Part shown: positions 1,505-9,011 of the stretch, in pieces
How positions within the stretch are numbered: the first letter of the stretch is position 1
Layout: each line of letters begins with the position of its first letter
From: a virus
Reading direction: 5' to 3' (one strand)
Virus genome (UHGV): UHGV-0075702
Length of the DNA: 18,339 bases
Notes under the pieces: model-generated
What the model was told of the DNA's origin: nothing
What the model saw: only the letters and a program-made list of their open reading frames with translations
Databases searched by the model: none
Made by a program: the position numbers and the translations under genes

Positions 1505-1745
1505 TGGTTGCCTCCTGTTTTTCTGCCTTCAACACCATGCGAGAACCATCATCCAGCTCCCACGCGATCTCACCACCTTCAGCCATGACCAGTTGCCACA
1601 CCAATTGAGCAGCCTCATTGGTAACATCACGACCTGGATCATTGCCAACGCGCATACGCCCACCTTCAACATCGCGCATTTTTGCCAGCATGATAGTTTT
1701 TGATAGCGGTGAAAAACCAAGCTGTAGTCGTGCTGAATTACTCAC
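1491..1745 (-). CDS. hypothetical protein (84 aa)
   Basis: GTG start at 1745 with strong AAGGAGG RBS 6 nt upstream, overlapping the TGA of the upstream gene (GTGA). The track ORF 1491..1766 starts at an upstream GTG without an RBS. Confidence 0.45.
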
Positions 1746-1927
1746 TGGTTGCCTCCTTTGCGCCACATCGCATTCAGATATTTGTTTTGATTCACTGAAG
1801 GAAAAGAATTTCTCTTAAGCAATTCCTCTCTCGATGGCATTGGCTTTACGCGTTGGCGAATAATCATTTCTGCCGGAAGAATACCGGGATTGTATGCAAG
1901 TCCTCTCATGGTAAATTCCTCAGTCAT
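1742..1927 (-). CDS. hypothetical protein (61 aa)
   Basis: Internal ATG of track ORF 1742..2062, forming an ATGA start/stop overlap with the upstream 98-aa gene. Part of a chain of coupled small genes. Confidence 0.4.
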
Positions 1928-2216
1928 TACTGATAGCGCCATAGCGTGAGCGGTAATTACGCAGGCGCGGGTCGATATATTCAGGGAAGTGGGTATATGT
2001 GGCTTTGCGGAATGGTCGGATTGATGTCTGGTAAATTCGCTCTCGTTCTTCTTTCTCTGCAAGCCATATACAGTGGCGAAATTCTTTTTCCTCTTTCGTT
2101 TCCTGCGGTAGTGACATTATCCGATCGTAGTTTCTTCTGAATTTATCCAGCACCTCCGATACGGAATTGCCGGAACAGCGGCGCGGGTCATCCGCACCAT
2201 ACAGAGGCGCTGGCAT
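1920..2216 (-). CDS. hypothetical protein (98 aa) directly downstream of ssb; possibly an anti-RecBCD (Abc-like) function by position only
   Basis: ORF with AAGGA RBS. Abc-like role is suggested only by its place after erf-ssb; no sequence recognition. Confidence 0.45.
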
Positions 2217-2239
2217 AATGGAATCCTTATTTTGCTAAT

Positions 2240-2623
2240 TTAGAAGGGAATTGAATCGTCGTATTCAGGAAGATTTTGATGATTGTTACTTTGTTGCTGT
2301 TGGCTGTTTCCTGAAGTTGCAAATCCAATCTTTGCATTCAGTAATTCAAGAGTGATTGATTGACCATTTTGCCCCTGATAAACATCAACCCTGATGTTTT
2401 CTCCGGTAATTTCCACAATTCCACCTTCAACCAGAACGCTACGATAGTAATCCGCTTGCGCTCCCGGCTTGGCAAATACAACGGCGCTGTAGTTTGTCCA
2501 TTCTTTCTTTTTTGTCTGGCGATCGTAATACTGAACGCCAGCACGGATGTTGAATCCGATATTTTCCCCGGCCTGAAACTCTCTTGCGGGTTTGTTTAGT
2601 CTTACTGTAATCGAATGTGCCAT
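2240..2623 (-). CDS. ssb: single-stranded DNA-binding protein (SSB)
   Basis: Internal ATG (MAHSITVRLNK...) overlaps the erf stop (TAATG). Acidic C-terminal tail ...LPEYDDSIPF matches the SSB D-D-D-I-P-F tail. Confidence 0.8.
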   Translation of the reverse strand: MAHSITVRLNKPAREFQAGENIGFNIRAGVQYYDRQTKKKEWTNYSAVVFAKPGAQADYYRSVLVEGGIVEITGENIRVDVYQGQNGQSITLELLNAKIGFATSGNSQQQQSNNHQNLPEYDDSIPF

Positions 2624-3228
2624 TAAGCAGTTGCCCCTTCTAATTCGTCTCGTCTGATGTTGTAAACGTCCTGCGCTTTGTGCTGCTCCGGCGTCCCTTC
2701 GAGCATCTTCCACGCTTTGGCGAACGCCTGTTTAAGCTCTTCTACGGTGTTTTTCTGCATTGCTGCGTCAGTGAATGCTTTTAGAACCTGTTCAGGTGTA
2801 AGTGATGGTTTTGATTGCTTTGCTGCTGCGTTCTGCTGATGTTTATGCTCGTCTGTATCTGCATCTTTCGCATCATCAATGCCGAACAAACCATTGAGGC
2901 AATACTTGCGCGCATAAGAACTTGTAGCTCCAGTAACTTGTGCAGAATCCATTCCTTTCTTGCTTTCTTCCTCTCTTGCGAGAGCGGTTGCCGTATGGCG
3001 GTTTTCGCCATCGGTAATAGTTGCCGTGGCTTTCACATAATACCGATCACCAATCAACACAACTTCATCGCTGATTGATAAAAACAGGCCATTCAGTAAC
3101 GGCTTAACGCCTTCAAGAATGTCTTCGCAGCTTCTGTATTTATATTTACCGAATGAGTTGTACTGATTCTTTGGCGCGTTCAGATTCTCCTGAATAGCTG
3201 CCAGTCTTGCATAAAATTCTTTGCTCAT
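2623..3228 (-). CDS. erf: ERF-family single-strand annealing recombinase (P22 Erf-like)
   Basis: Translation MSKEFYARLAAIQENLNAPKNQYNSFGKYKYRSCEDILEGVKPLL... closely matches my recollection of P22 Erf. Start chosen at the internal ATG (3228), 11 nt after the stop of the upstream small ORF. Confidence 0.8.
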   Translation of the reverse strand: MSKEFYARLAAIQENLNAPKNQYNSFGKYKYRSCEDILEGVKPLLNGLFLSISDEVVLIGDRYYVKATATITDGENRHTATALAREEESKKGMDSAQVTGATSSYARKYCLNGLFGIDDAKDADTDEHKHQQNAAAKQSKPSLTPEQVLKAFTDAAMQKNTVEELKQAFAKAWKMLEGTPEQHKAQDVYNIRRDELEGATA

Positions 3229-3777: not shown

Positions 3778-4745
3778 TTAGTAGGTTATTTTTGTTGCGA
3801 ATACTTCGCCTTTTACGATGGCTGTTATGATATTTTTAGCAACATCTTCTGATGCGCCAACCTTGATAAGGTCAGCAAGTATTTTGTTATTTACTTCTTT
3901 CCGGTGAGCTTTATCCTTTGCTCTACGCTCTTCTTCTTCCTTGATTCTTTTTTCTTCTGCTATTCTGGCTTGCTCTTTTGCTTCAGCCTCGCGCCGGATT
4001 CGTTCAGTCTCCTCCTGTGCTTTTCGGCGTTCTGCTTCAATTGCCGCCTGCTTTTCTCTTTCAGCTCGTTCTGCTGCCTCTTTTGCTTCGCGCTGTGCTC
4101 GTTGCTCGGCTTCAATGCGTTCACGCTCTGCACGTTCCGCTGCGGCCTTAGCTTCTGCTTCTCGCCTTGCTGCTGCTTCAATTTCGGCTTTTGCCTTTGC
4201 TTCGGCTTCTGCTCTGGCTTTCTCTTCAGCTTCTCTTTTTAAGCGTTCTTCATGCTCTCGCTTTTCCTGCTCCGCTTTGAGTCTTGCCTCTTCTCTTTGG
4301 CGGTCAAATTCGCGATCCATCAAAATCGCTATTTCATGGTCAGACTCAATTTGCTTTGCGAGAGCTTCAGCTGCTGCCTTAGCTTCTTCTTCGGCTTTAA
4401 TCCGCGCCTGTTCCTCCTCATAATCAGTAAGAGGCTGGCGAGCCTTGCTTTCAGTTCATCAAGGCGATCGCGCACTGTCTTGCGGTTGGCATCAATTAGC
4501 TTTGGAATTTCCTTCAGTTCAGCAACAAGGTCTTTGCCAAGACCATCGAGATATGTTTTCGTCTGCGCAACTTTATACGCCAGAGAAGCGATCTCCTTTC
4601 TGCCCTTTGCCGTTGTGATATCAGGCACAAAGGACATAACTTCACGTTCAACCTTTTGGAGAATTTCTTCAATCTGGTCGGCAGACTGAAATACAGTCAT
4701 TGCATTTGCTTTTTCAATAACAACTAAATCTGTTACTTCACTCAT
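3778..4745 (-). pseudogene. frameshift-interrupted gene: N-terminal domain (4329..4745) plus Ala/Glu/Arg/Lys-rich TolA-like repeat and C-terminal domain (3778..4323); pseudogene, sequencing error or frameshifting not distinguishable
   Basis: Two track ORFs abut. The downstream frame stays open upstream to about 4455 and reads as plausible protein (LTDYEEEQARIKAEEEAKAAAEALAKQIESDHE...), while the tail of the upstream frame (RLASLLLIMRRNRRGLKPKKK...) looks like out-of-frame junk. GGAGG RBS before the ATG at 4745. Confidence 0.5.
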
Positions 4746-5617: not shown

Positions 5618-5625
5618 ATCTCACC

Positions 5626-5961
5626 TCAAATAAGTGGTTTGCTGCCTAATTTCATTTTCTGGCGACCAACACAAGTCACACCCATTTCACTGCGTGGCTT
5701 GCGGTAGTAAATACGGTTCTGTTTACTCTCGACTTCTTCTGCCTTCTTGCAGCGAAGGCTTCCGAGTGATATTGCTTTTTCAGAAAGGCTTAAACGCTTT
5801 CTCGGGGCTTCCTGAACAGGTTCCTCACTGTCTGTACTGAAGATCGAATCGATGATGTTGCAGATGGCATCACGCTCGATAGCCAGCTTTCTGCGCCGCT
5901 CATGACGGCGAGTTTTGGCATTTCCTGCAAATGTTGATTTCCCGTACACGATTACCGTCAT
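5626..5961 (-). CDS. N: N-type transcription antitermination protein
   Basis: C-terminus ...GVTCVGRQKMKLGSKPLI resembles lambda N (...GITCSGRQKIKGKSIPLI from memory), with an Arg-rich N-terminus (AKTRRHERRRK). Start taken at the internal ATG with GAGGAAAA RBS. nut-like sites lie upstream. Confidence 0.75.
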   Translation of the reverse strand: MTVIVYGKSTFAGNAKTRRHERRRKLAIERDAICNIIDSIFSTDSEEPVQEAPRKRLSLSEKAISLGSLRCKKAEEVESKQNRIYYRKPRSEMGVTCVGRQKMKLGSKPLI

Positions 5962-6080
5962 GATATTTTCCTCATGTGAAATGGCTTTGGTGGTGATGCG
6001 CCAGATGCTGATCTTCTGGTTGCTGTCGTTGCAGCTGCAATTCACATCACCGCCAAACCCATCTCGTTTGGTATCTGTTT

Positions 6081-6116
6081 GCGCTTTGTCAGCGCCCCAT
6101 CGAAGTTAAAGAGCCT
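6081..6116 (-). promoter_or_regulatory. nutL candidate (boxA plus boxB hairpin)
   Basis: Minus strand reads aGGCTCTTTAAC (boxA-like; consensus CGCTCTTTA), a 9-nt spacer, then GCGCT-GACAA-AGCGC (5-bp stem, 5-nt loop, same architecture as lambda boxB). The same GACAA loop occurs in the nutR candidate. Confidence 0.5.
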
Positions 6117-6149
6117 GCCAATCTGTTCCGTTTGGCTTCCAGCGTCCTG

Positions 6150-6200
6150 CTGATGTGATGATAATGAACCAATAGTTCGATATTATCAAGAACTATTGGT
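6150..6200 (-). promoter_or_regulatory. pL/OL candidate region
   Basis: 10-bp inverted repeat CCAATAGTTC-N11-GAACTATTGG (6166..6196) overlapping a minus-strand TTGATA-N17-CATTAT promoter-like pair. A GTACGAAA motif is shared with the OR region. Confidence 0.3.
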
Positions 6201-6370
6201 ACGAAATTTTTGTGATTTATTAATGCAGCGAGATATGATTTTGATATATAAGGAAATTTATTTTTGTAAATGCTGCAGATTGGTCTGTAGTTGGAGGGAG
6301 TATTGCTGGTGAGTTGGTTCGCGGTTTACCACATTTGCGGCTATTAAATATGGGAGGGCGAACGTGAGGC

Positions 6371-6396
6371 AAAGAAAACCCGGCGCTGAGGCCGGG
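6371..6396 (-). terminator. intrinsic terminator closing the cI-peptidase transcription unit
   Basis: Minus strand: CCCGGC-ctcagc-GCCGGG followed by TTTTCTTT, about 15-30 nt after the stops at 6411/6427. Confidence 0.6.
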
Positions 6397-6410
6397 TTGT
6401 GAGGAATTAA

Positions 6411-6590
6411 TTACAGAGCAAAGAGATCATGCATTAGGTTGCTGTTCATCTGGTGGTTGAATTGATACGGCTCCAATTCCTTCTTGATCTCGTTCAGGTG
6501 TTGTTCCGCTTTTTTTGCCAGATCGTGACCTTCTTGGATCTGGCTTTCCAACATCTTGTTGAGAATTTCCATCTCCGGTTGCAGATTCTT
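6411..6590 (-). CDS. alternative-frame small ORF (59 aa, MPKNLQPEMEILNKMLESQIQEGHDLAKKAEQHLNEIKKELEPYQ...) overlapping the 3' end of the peptidase ORF
   Basis: Part of track ORF 6411..6686. GAGG 9 nt before the ATG; helical-looking sequence with E. coli-preferred codons (ctg, gcg, ccg, aac, atc), whereas the overlapping peptidase frame uses rarer codons. Only one of the two frames is likely coding here. Confidence 0.25.
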   Translation of the reverse strand, partial: KNLQPEMEILNKMLESQIQEGHDLAKKAEQHLNEIKKELEPYQFNHQMNSNLMHDLFAL

Positions 6591-7428
6591 CGGCATTAGC
6601 TTTTTCCTCTTTTTGTAGATACGTTGTACAATCAATAACCCTCGGCTTTCCAAATGTTGGAATGTCACCATTATGAATTTTGTCACAGAAAAGATTATAG
6701 AGTATTTCTGTTATACCTTTAGGATGCTCAACACACTTGAAAAGTTCCTTGGCTTCTTTTCTGTCGATAACAAATCCATGTGAAGGATATGAGGCTATTA
6801 GTTTGCCTAACGCCCCTTCTTTTAGGCTGCTTGGTTTGTCTGCTAATCGTTGGCCATAAGTGATAGCTATACTCATTGCGCGCTGATGTTCACCAAGCTT
6901 TATTGGATCTATCTGTGCGGCCATAGGTGCTATCAACGCTTCTGTAAGTCTGGTCGCGATATCAGCAGACATTTTGGTACTTATCTGATTTTCGTATCTT
7001 ATCTTAACAAGGTGTGAGTTAAACGCTGAAATAGAGCGTTCCTTTAGAGCATCAAGAGCTGTCATGATAGCTAAACCAGAACTCATCTCACCTATTTCAT
7101 CGTTTTTTTTCAGTTGGATATCTAATGGCCCAAGCTCCCCCATGTCACCAATAACAAGTTTATTGGCTGCTATAGCTATTAGTGTACCAGCACTTTTGCA
7201 TGGTCCAACAACTAAAAGTGTTACCGTTTCATAATGGTGCTGTAGAGCTCTACCTATACGATAACCTGCATTTGGATCACCGCCATAAGTAGCAACACAG
7301 AAGATAACATTCTCTTTTAATCCATGTTGTGACTTACGTTTCTTGATTTCATTGGTGAGATCAAGATAACCATCACGATGAATATCGCCTGTATACACAT
7401 AAACATCATGATTTTCAATAGAATTCAT
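6427..7428 (-). CDS. Clp-fold serine peptidase (SDH / SppA-S49-like) at the position lambda uses for rexAB
   Basis: The segment VIFCVATYGGDPNAGYRIGRALQ...LLVVGPCKSAGTLIAIAANKLVIGDMGELGPLDIQ follows the pattern I recall for SDH-family/S49 proteases (...SPGG...ALR...MSGGTLIALAADEIVM...LGPVDPQ). GGGAG RBS. The body from about 6600 to 7428 is visibly AT-rich. The last ~85 codons are low-complexity, so the 3' end is uncertain. Confidence 0.65.
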   Translation of the reverse strand: MNSIENHDVYVYTGDIHRDGYLDLTNEIKKRKSQHGLKENVIFCVATYGGDPNAGYRIGRALQHHYETVTLLVVGPCKSAGTLIAIAANKLVIGDMGELGPLDIQLKKNDEIGEMSSGLAIMTALDALKERSISAFNSHLVKIRYENQISTKMSADIATRLTEALIAPMAAQIDPIKLGEHQRAMSIAITYGQRLADKPSSLKEGALGKLIASYPSHGFVIDRKEAKELFKCVEHPKGITEILYNLFCDKIHNGDIPTFGKPRVIDCTTYLQKEEKANAEESATGDGNSQQDVGKPDPRRSRSGKKSGTTPERDQEGIGAVSIQPPDEQQPNA

Positions 7429-7594
7429 TCGTTAAACTCCCTGCTGTGGTTACGATGAATGTATTCATGTTGAAGCTAAGCCATAGCGGCTTGTCATCAT
7501 CACCAATCTGGCGGAATTGACTGTTCATAAATCACAATTGGACTCACCCAAACGTCTCTTCAGGCCACTGGTTACCAGCTATGTGACGATGAAG

Positions 7595-8302
7595 TCACGA
7601 ACTTTTCAGCCACTCCCTTGCCTCGATGTCATCCAGATGGCGAGATTGCTTCAGAATACCAGCCACATACTCCACCTTTGCTACTTGATGATAAGGCAAC
7701 GTTATTGGCCTGTGGTCCTGGTTGATGCTTGTAAATTGGTATTCTCCGTCTCTGTCATAGCCAAGAACTTTGATCATGTTGTGTCCTTCAACAGTTCTGA
7801 CAAACACCTCATCACCCGGGAATACTTTGGTGTTAGGCTCAATGAGTACATATTCTCCTGATTTTATTCTGGGCCACATGCTGTCTCCTTTCACACGAAG
7901 ACCAAAGGCATCTGGATCATCGCTATAAATCTTGAGCCACCCATCGCGCTCTTCGGTCATCTCGATGGCACCATCAACACCAAGAATTGCCTCACCAACC
8001 ACGCGCACTAACCCTTTTTTTAATTTGCCAACAAATGAAAGAGTATCTTCATCATTCGCTCCATTTAACGAAGTGCCGTGCTGAAGCCAAACAACATCAA
8101 CGTTTAGAAATTTCGCAAGCGCATTCATTTTTTCCTGACGCGGTAAAGACTCAGCATTAAACCATTTGCTAACGCCTTTGGACGAAAGAGAAAGGGCACG
8201 GGCTATGGCCATCCCCCTACCATGTTCATCAAGACCAGCTTCTTTACAGGCTTGCGCTAGCCGCTGGGCGAATTCTTTGCGCACTTTTTCATTCTGAACC
8301 AT
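7595..8302 (-). CDS. cI: CI-type prophage repressor (N-terminal HTH plus C-terminal S24/LexA-like autocleavage domain)
   Basis: 235-aa ORF with an HTH-like N-terminal region and a C-terminal region containing G-D-S-M (LRVKGDSMWPRIKSGEYVLIEP), typical of the S24 Ser-Lys dyad. Divergent from cro across a 78-bp operator region. Confidence 0.9.
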   Translation of the reverse strand: MVQNEKVRKEFAQRLAQACKEAGLDEHGRGMAIARALSLSSKGVSKWFNAESLPRQEKMNALAKFLNVDVVWLQHGTSLNGANDEDTLSFVGKLKKGLVRVVGEAILGVDGAIEMTEERDGWLKIYSDDPDAFGLRVKGDSMWPRIKSGEYVLIEPNTKVFPGDEVFVRTVEGHNMIKVLGYDRDGEYQFTSINQDHRPITLPYHQVAKVEYVAGILKQSRHLDDIEAREWLKSS

Positions 8303-8380
8303 GAGTACGATACTAAAGCACTTGCAAAAACTTTCAGTTCAATCATAATGCGTACTGAAAGTACGAAAAAGGATATTCCT
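8303..8380. promoter_or_regulatory. OR region with divergent pRM/pR candidates and operator dyads
   Basis: 78 bp between the cI and cro start codons. Contains inverted repeat ACTTTCAGT-N15-ACTGAAAGT, a small dyad AGTAcgaTACT, and a plus-strand TTGCAA-N16/17-CATAAT (pR-like) about 30 nt before the cro ATG. A TAGTAT hexamer 7 nt before the cI ATG would fit a leaderless pRM transcript. Confidence 0.55.
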
Positions 8381-8608
8381 ATGCAAAATCTTGATGAGCC
8401 GATTAAAGGTGTCGGCATCCCTGAAGTTGCGAAGGCTTGTGGAGTTAGCGAAAGGGCTGTCTATAAGTGGCTTAAAAACGGCTTCCTCCCTAAGACTGAG
8501 TTTTTTGGGAAAACGAAATATGCATCAAAAATCGAAGAGATTTCTGGTGGCAAATATCAAGCAAGCGAAATGCTTGAAATAAGCAAAAAGAACCTTCTGG
8601 CTGCATAA
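8381..8608 (+). CDS. cro: Cro-like HTH repressor (75 aa)
   Basis: Start at the internal ATG with AAGGA RBS. Contains an HTH-like stretch (GIPEVAKACGVSERAVYKWLKNG). First gene rightward of the operator region, divergent from cI. Confidence 0.7.
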   Translation: MQNLDEPIKGVGIPEVAKACGVSERAVYKWLKNGFLPKTEFFGKTKYASKIEEISGGKYQASEMLEISKKNLLAA

Positions 8609-8615
8609 GTAACAT

Positions 8616-8650
8616 CGCTCTTTATCAATCTGCACCGCCGACAACGCGGT
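8616..8650 (+). promoter_or_regulatory. nutR candidate (boxA plus boxB hairpin)
   Basis: CGCTCTTTA (boxA consensus) 8 nt after the cro stop, followed 9 nt later by ACCGC-CGACAAC-GCGGT. The hairpin loop shares GACAA with the nutL candidate. Confidence 0.5.
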
Positions 8651-8662
8651 AACTAATTAAGC

Positions 8663-8680
8663 ACTCATCGAAAGATGAGT
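8663..8680 (+). terminator. tR1-position hairpin (7-bp stem, GAAA loop)
   Basis: ACTCATC-GAAA-GATGAGT followed by AT-rich ATTAGTGATTATTTA. There is no clean U-tract, so it could be a Rho-dependent site or merely a structure. Confidence 0.3.
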
Positions 8681-8714
8681 ATTAGTGATTATTTACCTAT
8701 GGAAATAGTAAGAA

Positions 8715-9011
8715 ATGGAACAAACAAGTTACAGCAAACTATCACAGCGCGACGTTGATCGCGCAGAAACAGATTTACTTATCAACCTGTCAGCGATTAC
8801 CCAGCGCGGTCTGGCAAAGATGATTGGCTGTCATGAATCGAAGATAAGCAGAACGGACTGGCGGTTTATTGCTTCGGTTCTGTGTGCTTTCGGAATGGCA
8901 TCGGACATCAGTCCGATTAGCAGGGCTTTTAAGTATGCGCTTGATGGAATCACAAAGAAAAAATCCCCGGCCGCCACCGAGGATTTTAAGCAAATTGATA
9001 TGCAATTCTGA
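8715..9011 (+). CDS. cII: CII transcriptional activator
   Basis: C-terminus ...[18 protein letters not shown] resembles lambda CII ...KKRPAATERSEQIQMEF (from memory), with an HTH-like centre ([16 protein letters not shown]). Confidence 0.85.

Follow-up and report, generated by a model that had tools for sequence, protein, structure and literature searches.

A peptidase gene lies between cI and pL

The virus genome UHGV-0075702, a stretch of 18,339 nucleotides whose full length we refer to as the window, carries a 333-codon gene for a predicted SDH-like serine peptidase of the ClpP fold between the repressor gene cI and the promoter pL. A preliminary description, made from the sequence without database searches, had placed this gene 166 bp after the cI stop codon on the same strand and had noted an AT-rich body, and both points were borne out. 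The gap measures exactly 166 bp, with the peptidase gene downstream of cI and both genes on the minus strand, which the description had not named, and the G+C content of the peptidase gene is 39.8%, compared to 46.0% for cI, 47.4% for the antiterminator gene N and 46.7% for the whole window; the exchangeable cassette described below has 39.9%. The peptide motifs quoted at that stage are likewise present in the translation. Along the minus strand the locus reads cI, cargo, terminator, pL, nutL and N (Table 1), which makes the slot the equivalent of the rexAB position in phage lambda.

The open reading frame (ORF) is a real gene and not a chance ORF, since PHROG 21683, a family of unknown function, matches it end to end (E = 8e-185), 1574 word-indexed homologues were found, and the ratio of nonsynonymous to synonymous substitution rates (dN/dS) in its core (codons 1-283) is 0.04-0.17 in comparisons with copies from E. 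coli, the Klebsiella phage and the second allele. Over the final 50 codons evolution is close to neutral (dN/dS 0.2-1.4).

No terminator-like site was found on the minus strand between cI and the peptidase gene, and no sigma-70-like promoter site scoring at least 9/12 was found on the minus strand in 7429..7594. Because neither signal intervenes, read-through from the cI promoters is the simplest route of expression. In lambda, rexAB lies between cI and the left operator OL and pL and is co-transcribed with cI in the lysogen; the peptidase would similarly be transcribed with cI from pRM/pRE. The transcription unit of cI and cargo is closed just before pL by a hairpin with a T-run, the positional counterpart of lambda tIMM. 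The preliminary description had recognized this terminator correctly but had assigned it to the peptidase gene. Phages H-19B, mEp506 and Stx2_EH0505 all have 6353..6399 although they carry other cargo, so the terminator is part of the conserved frame and is not the gene's own.

Table 1. Features of the cI-to-N interval in the window, with the codons of the putative catalytic residues
Feature	Position	Strand	Description
cI repressor	7595..8302	minus	Pfam HTH_3 and Peptidase_S24 (autocleavage domain)
Conserved frame segment 3' of the cI stop	7543..7594	minus	Forms the right border of the slot; also present in phages with other cargo
Cargo cassette	6400..7542	minus	Leader, peptidase gene and 27 bp; blastn breakpoints between frame-sharing phages
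Leader of the cassette	7429..7542	minus	GGGAG Shine-Dalgarno (7441..7437) and 37-codon ORF; sequence reading
SDH-like ClpP-fold serine peptidase gene (predicted)	6427..7428	minus	333 amino acids plus stop; ATG start
Ser79 codon	7192..7194	minus	Putative nucleophile, CKSAGT motif; Ser in 341/342 relatives
Asp103 codon	7120..7122	minus	Candidate triad acid (role inferred), GELGPLDxQ motif; 342/342 conserved
His217 codon	6778..6780	minus	Candidate general base (role inferred), YPSHGFVID motif; 342/342 conserved
Terminator-like hairpin and T-run	6377..6398	minus	AACCCGGCC-TCAGCG-CCGGGTT then TTCTTTG; 28 bp past the peptidase stop
pL region	6154..6200	minus	-35 TTGATA (6189..6184), 17-nt spacer, -10 CATTAT (6166..6161); promoter scan and sequence reading
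nutL	6080..6114	minus	boxA-like GCTCTTTAA (6114..6106); boxB hairpin GCGCT-GACAA-AGCGC (6094..6080)
Antiterminator N	5626..6045	minus	First gene of the pL operon; Pfam N_peptide 1.4e-25; PHROG 271

The slot exchanges its cargo at fixed breakpoints

Comparison with phages that share the frame located the edges of the cassette. By blastn, the Shiga toxin 2a (Stx2a)-converting phage Stx2_EH0505 aligns to 5625-6399 and 7543-8800, with the interior unmatched. Its cI differs from that of the window by 1 amino acid, and the side of the right operator (OR) is shared, as is the side comprising pL, N and the terminator. Its slot holds a DUF3024 protein (PADLOC candidate PDC-S43, 7e-42) together with an NYN-domain protein. 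H-19B and mEp506 have in common with the window the C-terminal half of cI, the 51 bp that follow its stop codon and the terminator (6353-6399), but differ in cargo. HicABC occupies the slot of mEp506, while that of H-19B contains a HigB/HigA-like pair matching PD-Lambda-2_A (2.5e-42) and PD-Lambda-2_B (5e-50) and, in addition, a 93-amino-acid ORF resembling PD-T4-9_C. The segment 7543..7594, at 95-98% identity in all three phages, contains a small GTGAC-N6-GTCAC hairpin without a T-run. In the GenBank record of H-19B (AF034975), the N-cI interval of ~1.9 kb is unannotated; the HigB/HigA-like and PD-T4-9_C-like ORFs lie at 1575..2917.

Five further E. coli prophages were sampled via the conserved flank. 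Two carry DUF3024 with two hypothetical proteins, one (O111) carries DUF3024 with a hypothetical protein and a Ser/Thr kinase resembling 933W stk, and the remaining two carry hypothetical proteins of 299 and 341 amino acids. The stk gene of 933W excludes HK97. The cassette also occurs beside another repressor: the region 6363-7574 is 99.8% identical in an E. coli prophage annotated with a different repressor (WP_182913400.1).

The cI-to-pL slot is thus a hot spot of cargo exchange, rich in defence and toxin-antitoxin genes. That the cI-adjacent position is such a hot spot had been put forward from general knowledge, and the survey of sister phages agrees. The alternative occupants (PD-Lambda-2-like, DUF3024 with NYN or Stk, HicABC) are interchangeable at 6399/6400 and 7542/7543. 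Their proteins are unrelated to the peptidase, and several match PADLOC models or are toxin-antitoxin systems. We conclude firmly that the peptidase gene is dispensable, horizontally exchanged accessory cargo in the repressor transcription unit of a lambdoid prophage.

The gene has the properties of rexAB-type immunity cargo, being on the cI strand with no intervening terminator, followed by a terminator before pL, and swappable. A classical moron would differ, as the cassette has no promoter-like site of at least 9/12 and its terminator lies outside the swapped segment. The niche is that of lambda rexA-rexB (on the cI strand, 3' of cI, with a terminator before OL, pL and N, and dispensable for the switch), but sequence and fold are unrelated, Rex being a two-protein sensor and membrane channel and the peptidase a single protein predicted to be soluble. 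Lambda rexB has its own promoter, pLIT, whereas none was found for the peptidase gene in the 9/12 scan.

The product is a predicted SDH-like peptidase with conserved Ser, Asp and His

The predicted protein consists of a folded core (approximately residues 1-283), helical in its C-terminal half, and a disordered tail of Gly, Gln, Pro and charged residues (284-333). The fold is of the ClpP alpha/beta type (MEROPS clan SK), in keeping with a nucleophile that heads the helix after the central strand and has the Gly-Gly loop upstream. The Clp-fold signature that the preliminary description had read from the KSAG motif holds at the nucleophile: HMMER and hhalign both align Ser79 (CKSAG) to the catalytic Ser of ClpP (AASMG) and 1510-N (AASAG), and TYGGDP, with the Gly-Gly of the oxyanion region, aligns with the SPGG loop of the same two proteins. 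As a family assignment the signature is partial, with PF01972 (SDH_protease) scoring below its gathering score (29.6 vs 31.3 bits) and matching residues 44-108, which correspond to profile positions 97-161 of 286. Among curated families, PF01972 gives the best match to the query and to 56 of 56 aligned relatives, each of which it matches at E <= 1e-3 (best 8.8e-10). The Pfam family CLP_protease (19.0 vs 20.2) and NfeD1b_N are both weaker, and the NCBIfam equivalog NF047768 (Clp_like_SDH) reaches 36.7 bits against a cut-off of 250, over residues 43-114 only. Among structural matches in BFVD, the top ones are giant-virus 'serine dehydrogenase proteinases', and the name that PGAP gives to the copies in E. 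coli is 'SDH family Clp fold serine proteinase'. A profile search of solved structures gave weak, consistent matches to 1510-N and ClpP. A plain sequence search of solved structures returned a single match, to a repeat protein, which we rejected as spurious.

Since the PF01972 match is partial and sub-threshold and NF047768 scores 36.7 vs 250, the protein is best classified as a member of a distinct, peripheral SDH-like subfamily of ~330 amino acids with a helical C-terminal half and a disordered tail. Family members are almost all single-domain proteins of 300-360 amino acids.

Conservation across 342 relatives singles out the candidate catalytic residues. Ser79, Gly49 and Gly50 are each conserved in 341 of the 342, and the full set of invariant or nearly invariant positions comprises these three together with Cys77, Lys78, Gly81, Thr82, Gly100, Pro101, Asp103, Gln105, Ser117, His217, Asp222 and Glu225. 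From this pattern, Ser79-Asp103-His217 is the likely catalytic triad. These invariant residues run in the order Ser, Asp, His, which is presumably that of the PF01972 triad and the source of the SDH name. His181 is conserved among close relatives and not family-wide. The Lys that had been named, beside His, as a possible partner did not stand as an SppA-type base, as Lys108 is invariant in the 56 closer relatives but falls under the 93% conservation cut-off in the 342-sequence set, where Lys78 is the sole Lys above it.

The family thereby differs from the well-characterized peptidases of this fold. In ClpP (S14), His lies 25 residues past Ser, whereas the peptidase has Asp103 at 24 instead, and no ClpX-like or other Clp ATPase gene was adjacent in the loci inspected. 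SppA (S49) and NfeD conserve a general-base Lys, for which the peptidase family has no conserved equivalent. SppA is also membrane-associated or secreted, whereas the peptidase has no N-terminal signal or anchor. Because neither a signal peptide nor a membrane anchor was found, with the core strand around Ser79 as the lone hydrophobic 19-mer, a cytoplasmic location is probable. Taken together, the product is predicted to be a soluble cytoplasmic serine peptidase with the ClpP/SppA/NfeD fold, conserved and probably active.

Distribution and genomic contexts of the family

The family was found in 49 of 5426 complete E. coli genomes (0.9%), always chromosomal and in single copy. Of these copies, 28 share at least 90% DNA identity and 21 represent a second allele at ~70%. 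In every case the close allele has a cI-type repressor on one side and N on the other, with differing left arms, and at least three repressor accessions adjoin it (WP_021572762.1, WP_182913400.1 and WP_182410984.1, annotated as helix-turn-helix, LexA-family or S24 regulators). The second allele (~59% amino acid identity) is found at a prophage end and not in the cI-N slot. In avian pathogenic E. coli (APEC) O78, this allele lies next to prfC; a truncated invertase with an S24 pseudogene flanks it on one side and a dinI-like gene on the other.

Placement next to a repressor recurs outside E. coli. In rac-like prophages of Klebsiella, the family member lies directly 3' of a short CI repressor and co-oriented with it; in Serratia prophages it follows an S24 cI and a tiny YoaK ORF, again co-oriented; and in Bartonella it lies 78 bp 3' of an S24 repressor in the same orientation. 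A Klebsiella phage carries its member beside an XRE/ImmA pair. Other positions are also represented, namely after the integrase at the genome end of a P2-like Burkholderia phage and at a prophage edge in Malonomonas. The tiny Serratia ORF between the S24 repressor and the peptidase gene encodes 32-40 amino acids and matches YoaK (PF28021). The Bartonella locus contains two genes for repressors with helix-turn-helix and S24 domains, the peptidase gene following the second, amid non-phage genes for a Na/H exchanger and a major facilitator superfamily transporter; the locus may be what is left of a prophage, or repressor and peptidase may form a pair that stands by itself.

Members were found in Proteobacteria, Cyanobacteria, Acidobacteriota, Bacteroidota, Planctomycetota, Chlorobiota, Firmicutes and Saccharimonadia. 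Neighbour clustering across 78 loci gave no conserved partner gene. The recurrent neighbours in these loci were S24 repressors (~10 loci), XRE and ImmA pairs (3), IS1 transposases, integrases and the syntenic genes of Nostocales. In Nostocales, the family member is flanked by lysS and two conserved genes on one side and by genes for an M48 peptidase and a DinG-like helicase on the opposite side. Just upstream of it are small inserts that vary, among them a two-gene pair (by inspection of the sequence a putative toxin-antitoxin) and a transposase-like gene.

A candidate superinfection defence gene

Judging from its position, we favor the reading that the gene encodes a single-gene superinfection defence or exclusion factor expressed in the lysogen, and we put the probability of this at roughly 0.4. 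The argument draws on the niche, on the other occupants of the slot, on how rare and mobile the gene is in Enterobacterales, and on its repeated association with repressors of unrelated types, which speaks for expression in the lysogen and not for one particular repressor as substrate. The anatomy of the locus, the fold with the active-site Ser, the invariant Ser79, Asp103 and His217, the purifying selection on the core and the lack of a conserved partner gene also count in favor. A defence role for the peptidase is plausible. Of the 89 immediate neighbours of family members, a few are hit by models of defence proteins, namely BstA, restriction enzymes of types IV and II, PD-Lambda-1, PDC-S02, RmrA and SduA.

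A working model is provided by Lit of prophage e14, likewise a single protease gene encoded by a prophage. When a phage peptide appears, Lit cuts a host protein and so aborts the infection; it is a zinc metalloprotease and has no homology to the peptidase. On such a model, the peptidase would be latent and harmless in the lysogen, possibly restrained by its own tail or by its oligomeric state, and upon infection its target would be a phage protein or a host protein that is essential, whose cleavage would block phage growth. The tail, which is disordered and evolves fast, may serve to inhibit the enzyme or be processed by it, much as SppA of B. subtilis binds its own C-terminus and trims it (PDB 4kwb).

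Several observations weigh against a defence role. First, the family is very large, with 1350 clusters (50% identity) at E < 1e-30 in an exhaustive profile search, and part of it sits in chromosomal settings. In 13-14 species of Nostocales, the family member has a conserved chromosomal neighbourhood of lysS, M48 peptidase and DinG-like helicase genes, and in Mannheimia it lies between a cation-efflux gene and hrpA; these contexts are as compatible with a general cellular protease as with a defence gene. Most of the 89 immediate neighbours are ordinary genes, notably outside Enterobacterales. Second, the peptidase has no recognisable sensor domain, and its triad is a prediction from conservation. 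Third, the 9/12 scan found no promoter belonging to the gene itself. Lastly, the peptidase matched zero families in PADLOC-DB v2.0.0 at E <= 1, and we found no published work on it, a search whose coverage did not extend to Brenes & Laub 2025 on E. coli prophage defence. The DefensePredictor, P2/P4 hot-spot and domain-centric discovery papers make no mention of Clp, SDH or S49 proteins. An apparent 'SppA' match in the literature was false, being part of the plasmid name pRSF-SP^PAM.

The protein family itself is already known, since it is named by PGAP and listed in PHROGs as of unknown function. We found no report of its placement in a repressor-linked slot, of the swap boundaries, of the Ser/Asp/His conservation pattern or of its candidacy for defence. 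It is a tentative and on balance doubtful proposition that the SDH-like peptidases of ~330 amino acids form an unrecognised, widespread single-gene anti-phage family, the first with a ClpP-fold effector, which would combine a rearranged Ser79-Asp103-His217 triad with an autoinhibitory, disordered tail and be deployed from the repressor operon to exclude competitors.

More generally, the lambdoid cI-to-pL slot is a display case for genes that it would benefit a prophage to express in the lysogen. Exchange of its contents takes place at fixed breakpoints, and the alternative occupants are mostly related to defence or of the toxin-antitoxin kind. If the peptidase is a defence gene, it would add a new effector fold in a simple one-gene system. 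If it is not, it would be a widespread, uncharacterised cytoplasmic protease that is worth carrying for phages.

Alternative explanations

The alternative that survives best is a general cytoplasmic peptidase, either housekeeping or of the lysogenic-conversion kind, which would act in quality control, peptide turnover or processing of host proteins and would be carried by temperate phages of Enterobacterales as fitness cargo. We consider this rather unlikely, though it has substantial evidence on its side. The family spans whole phyla with uniform architecture and is under strong purifying selection; its synteny in Nostocales and the stand-alone chromosomal context in Mannheimia fit a cellular enzyme, its neighbours are housekeeping genes in most phyla, and PADLOC has no match. 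Such a function sits poorly with the rare and patchy occurrence in E. coli (0.9% of genomes), with positions that in Enterobacterales, Bartonella and the two phage records are always prophage cargo sites, and with a slot that is otherwise filled by defence and toxin-antitoxin genes.

A role in the switch between lysis and lysogeny appears improbable. In this scenario, modelled on ImmA/IrrE cleaving ImmR, the peptidase would act on cI, CII, CIII, N or an antirepressor, and would either stabilise lysogeny or allow RecA-independent induction. The repeated placement directly 3' of a repressor and co-oriented with it in distant taxa would fit, as would the XRE/ImmA pair that adjoins the gene in the Klebsiella phage and in three other loci. 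However, phages with the same cI, operators and pL do without the peptidase and carry unrelated cargo, and it is because these sister phages have the same switch without the gene that a switch role is less likely. The linked repressors are also unrelated to each other (S24 cI, short CI without S24, XRE with ImmA), which points to a shared transcriptional niche and not to a shared substrate. Moreover, the window cI already has its own S24 autocleavage domain, and many family members have no repressor nearby.

That the gene is a catalytically dead or non-expressed remnant, whether a pseudo-protease scaffold or silent cargo, is essentially excluded. The sub-threshold matches to the curated peptidase models and the lack of an own promoter in the scan would agree with it, but the nucleophile Ser, the oxyanion-region Gly-Gly, Asp103, Gln105, Ser117 and His217 are invariant or nearly so in 342 sequences, the core dN/dS is 0.04-0.17, the ORF is intact and the Shine-Dalgarno is good. 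The reading as a prohead or scaffold-processing protease that has been displaced, of the head-maturation type akin to S49 or ClpP, is effectively refuted: a weak local match to PHROG 1684 (3.9e-7, residues 39-99) and a score of 34.4 bits for NF045542 are what speaks for it, whereas the NF045542 cut-off is 120, the top PHROG (8e-185) is another family, whose function is not assigned, the neighbours in the window are early, regulatory and replication genes with no head module nearby, and the position next to a repressor is conserved across phage types.

Further features of the locus

Several other features of the locus were recorded. The pL-like start region reads CATCAGCAGGACGC, like that of lambda pL. 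A perfect 11-bp inverted repeat, ACCAATAGTTC / GAACTATTGGT, at 6169..6200 flanks the -35 hexamer of this promoter and is likely to be an OL operator. OR and the pL region have no k-mers of at least 9 bases in common and show just a loose AACTnTnnGT resemblance. Palindromes in OR loosely resemble the repeat, for example CGTACTGAAAGTACG at ~8351-8365. The nutL site was assigned by reading the sequence against the established consensus of lambdoid nut sites. In the left operon, ral comes after N, and the genes of the window include erf, ssb, ral, N, cI, cro, cII, O, a DnaB-like helicase, a methyltransferase, Q and an endolysin.

The leader of the cassette is kept among the E. coli cassettes and not in the Klebsiella phage. 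Folding of the leader RNA is unremarkable (z = -1.25), so that no significant structure is indicated. Its 37-codon ORF (7415..7528, minus strand) overlaps the start codon of the peptidase gene by 14 nt and is retained with non-synonymous changes in diverged E. coli cassettes, while the Klebsiella phage has an unrelated 71-codon ORF at the same overlapping position in its place. As a gene, the 37-codon ORF is unconvincing, given its non-synonymous changes in E. coli and its absence from the Klebsiella phage.

The repressor gene itself is a mosaic that shares its C-terminal (S24) half, along with the 51 bp that follow the stop, with H-19B and mEp506, whereas the N-terminal DNA-binding half and OR are those of Stx2a-converting phages, with the similarity to the H-19B type breaking at ~8048. 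Elsewhere in the window, the minus-strand ORFs 4329..4745 and 3778..4323 correspond to the N- and C-terminal halves of a single PHROG (1376). Intact copies of PHROG 1376 in other prophages are annotated as TolA-like, which indicates that the gene at 3778..4745 is frameshifted or interrupted here. The AT skew of 3778..4745 is extreme (~ -0.6), reflecting a repetitive product rich in Lys, Glu and Gln.

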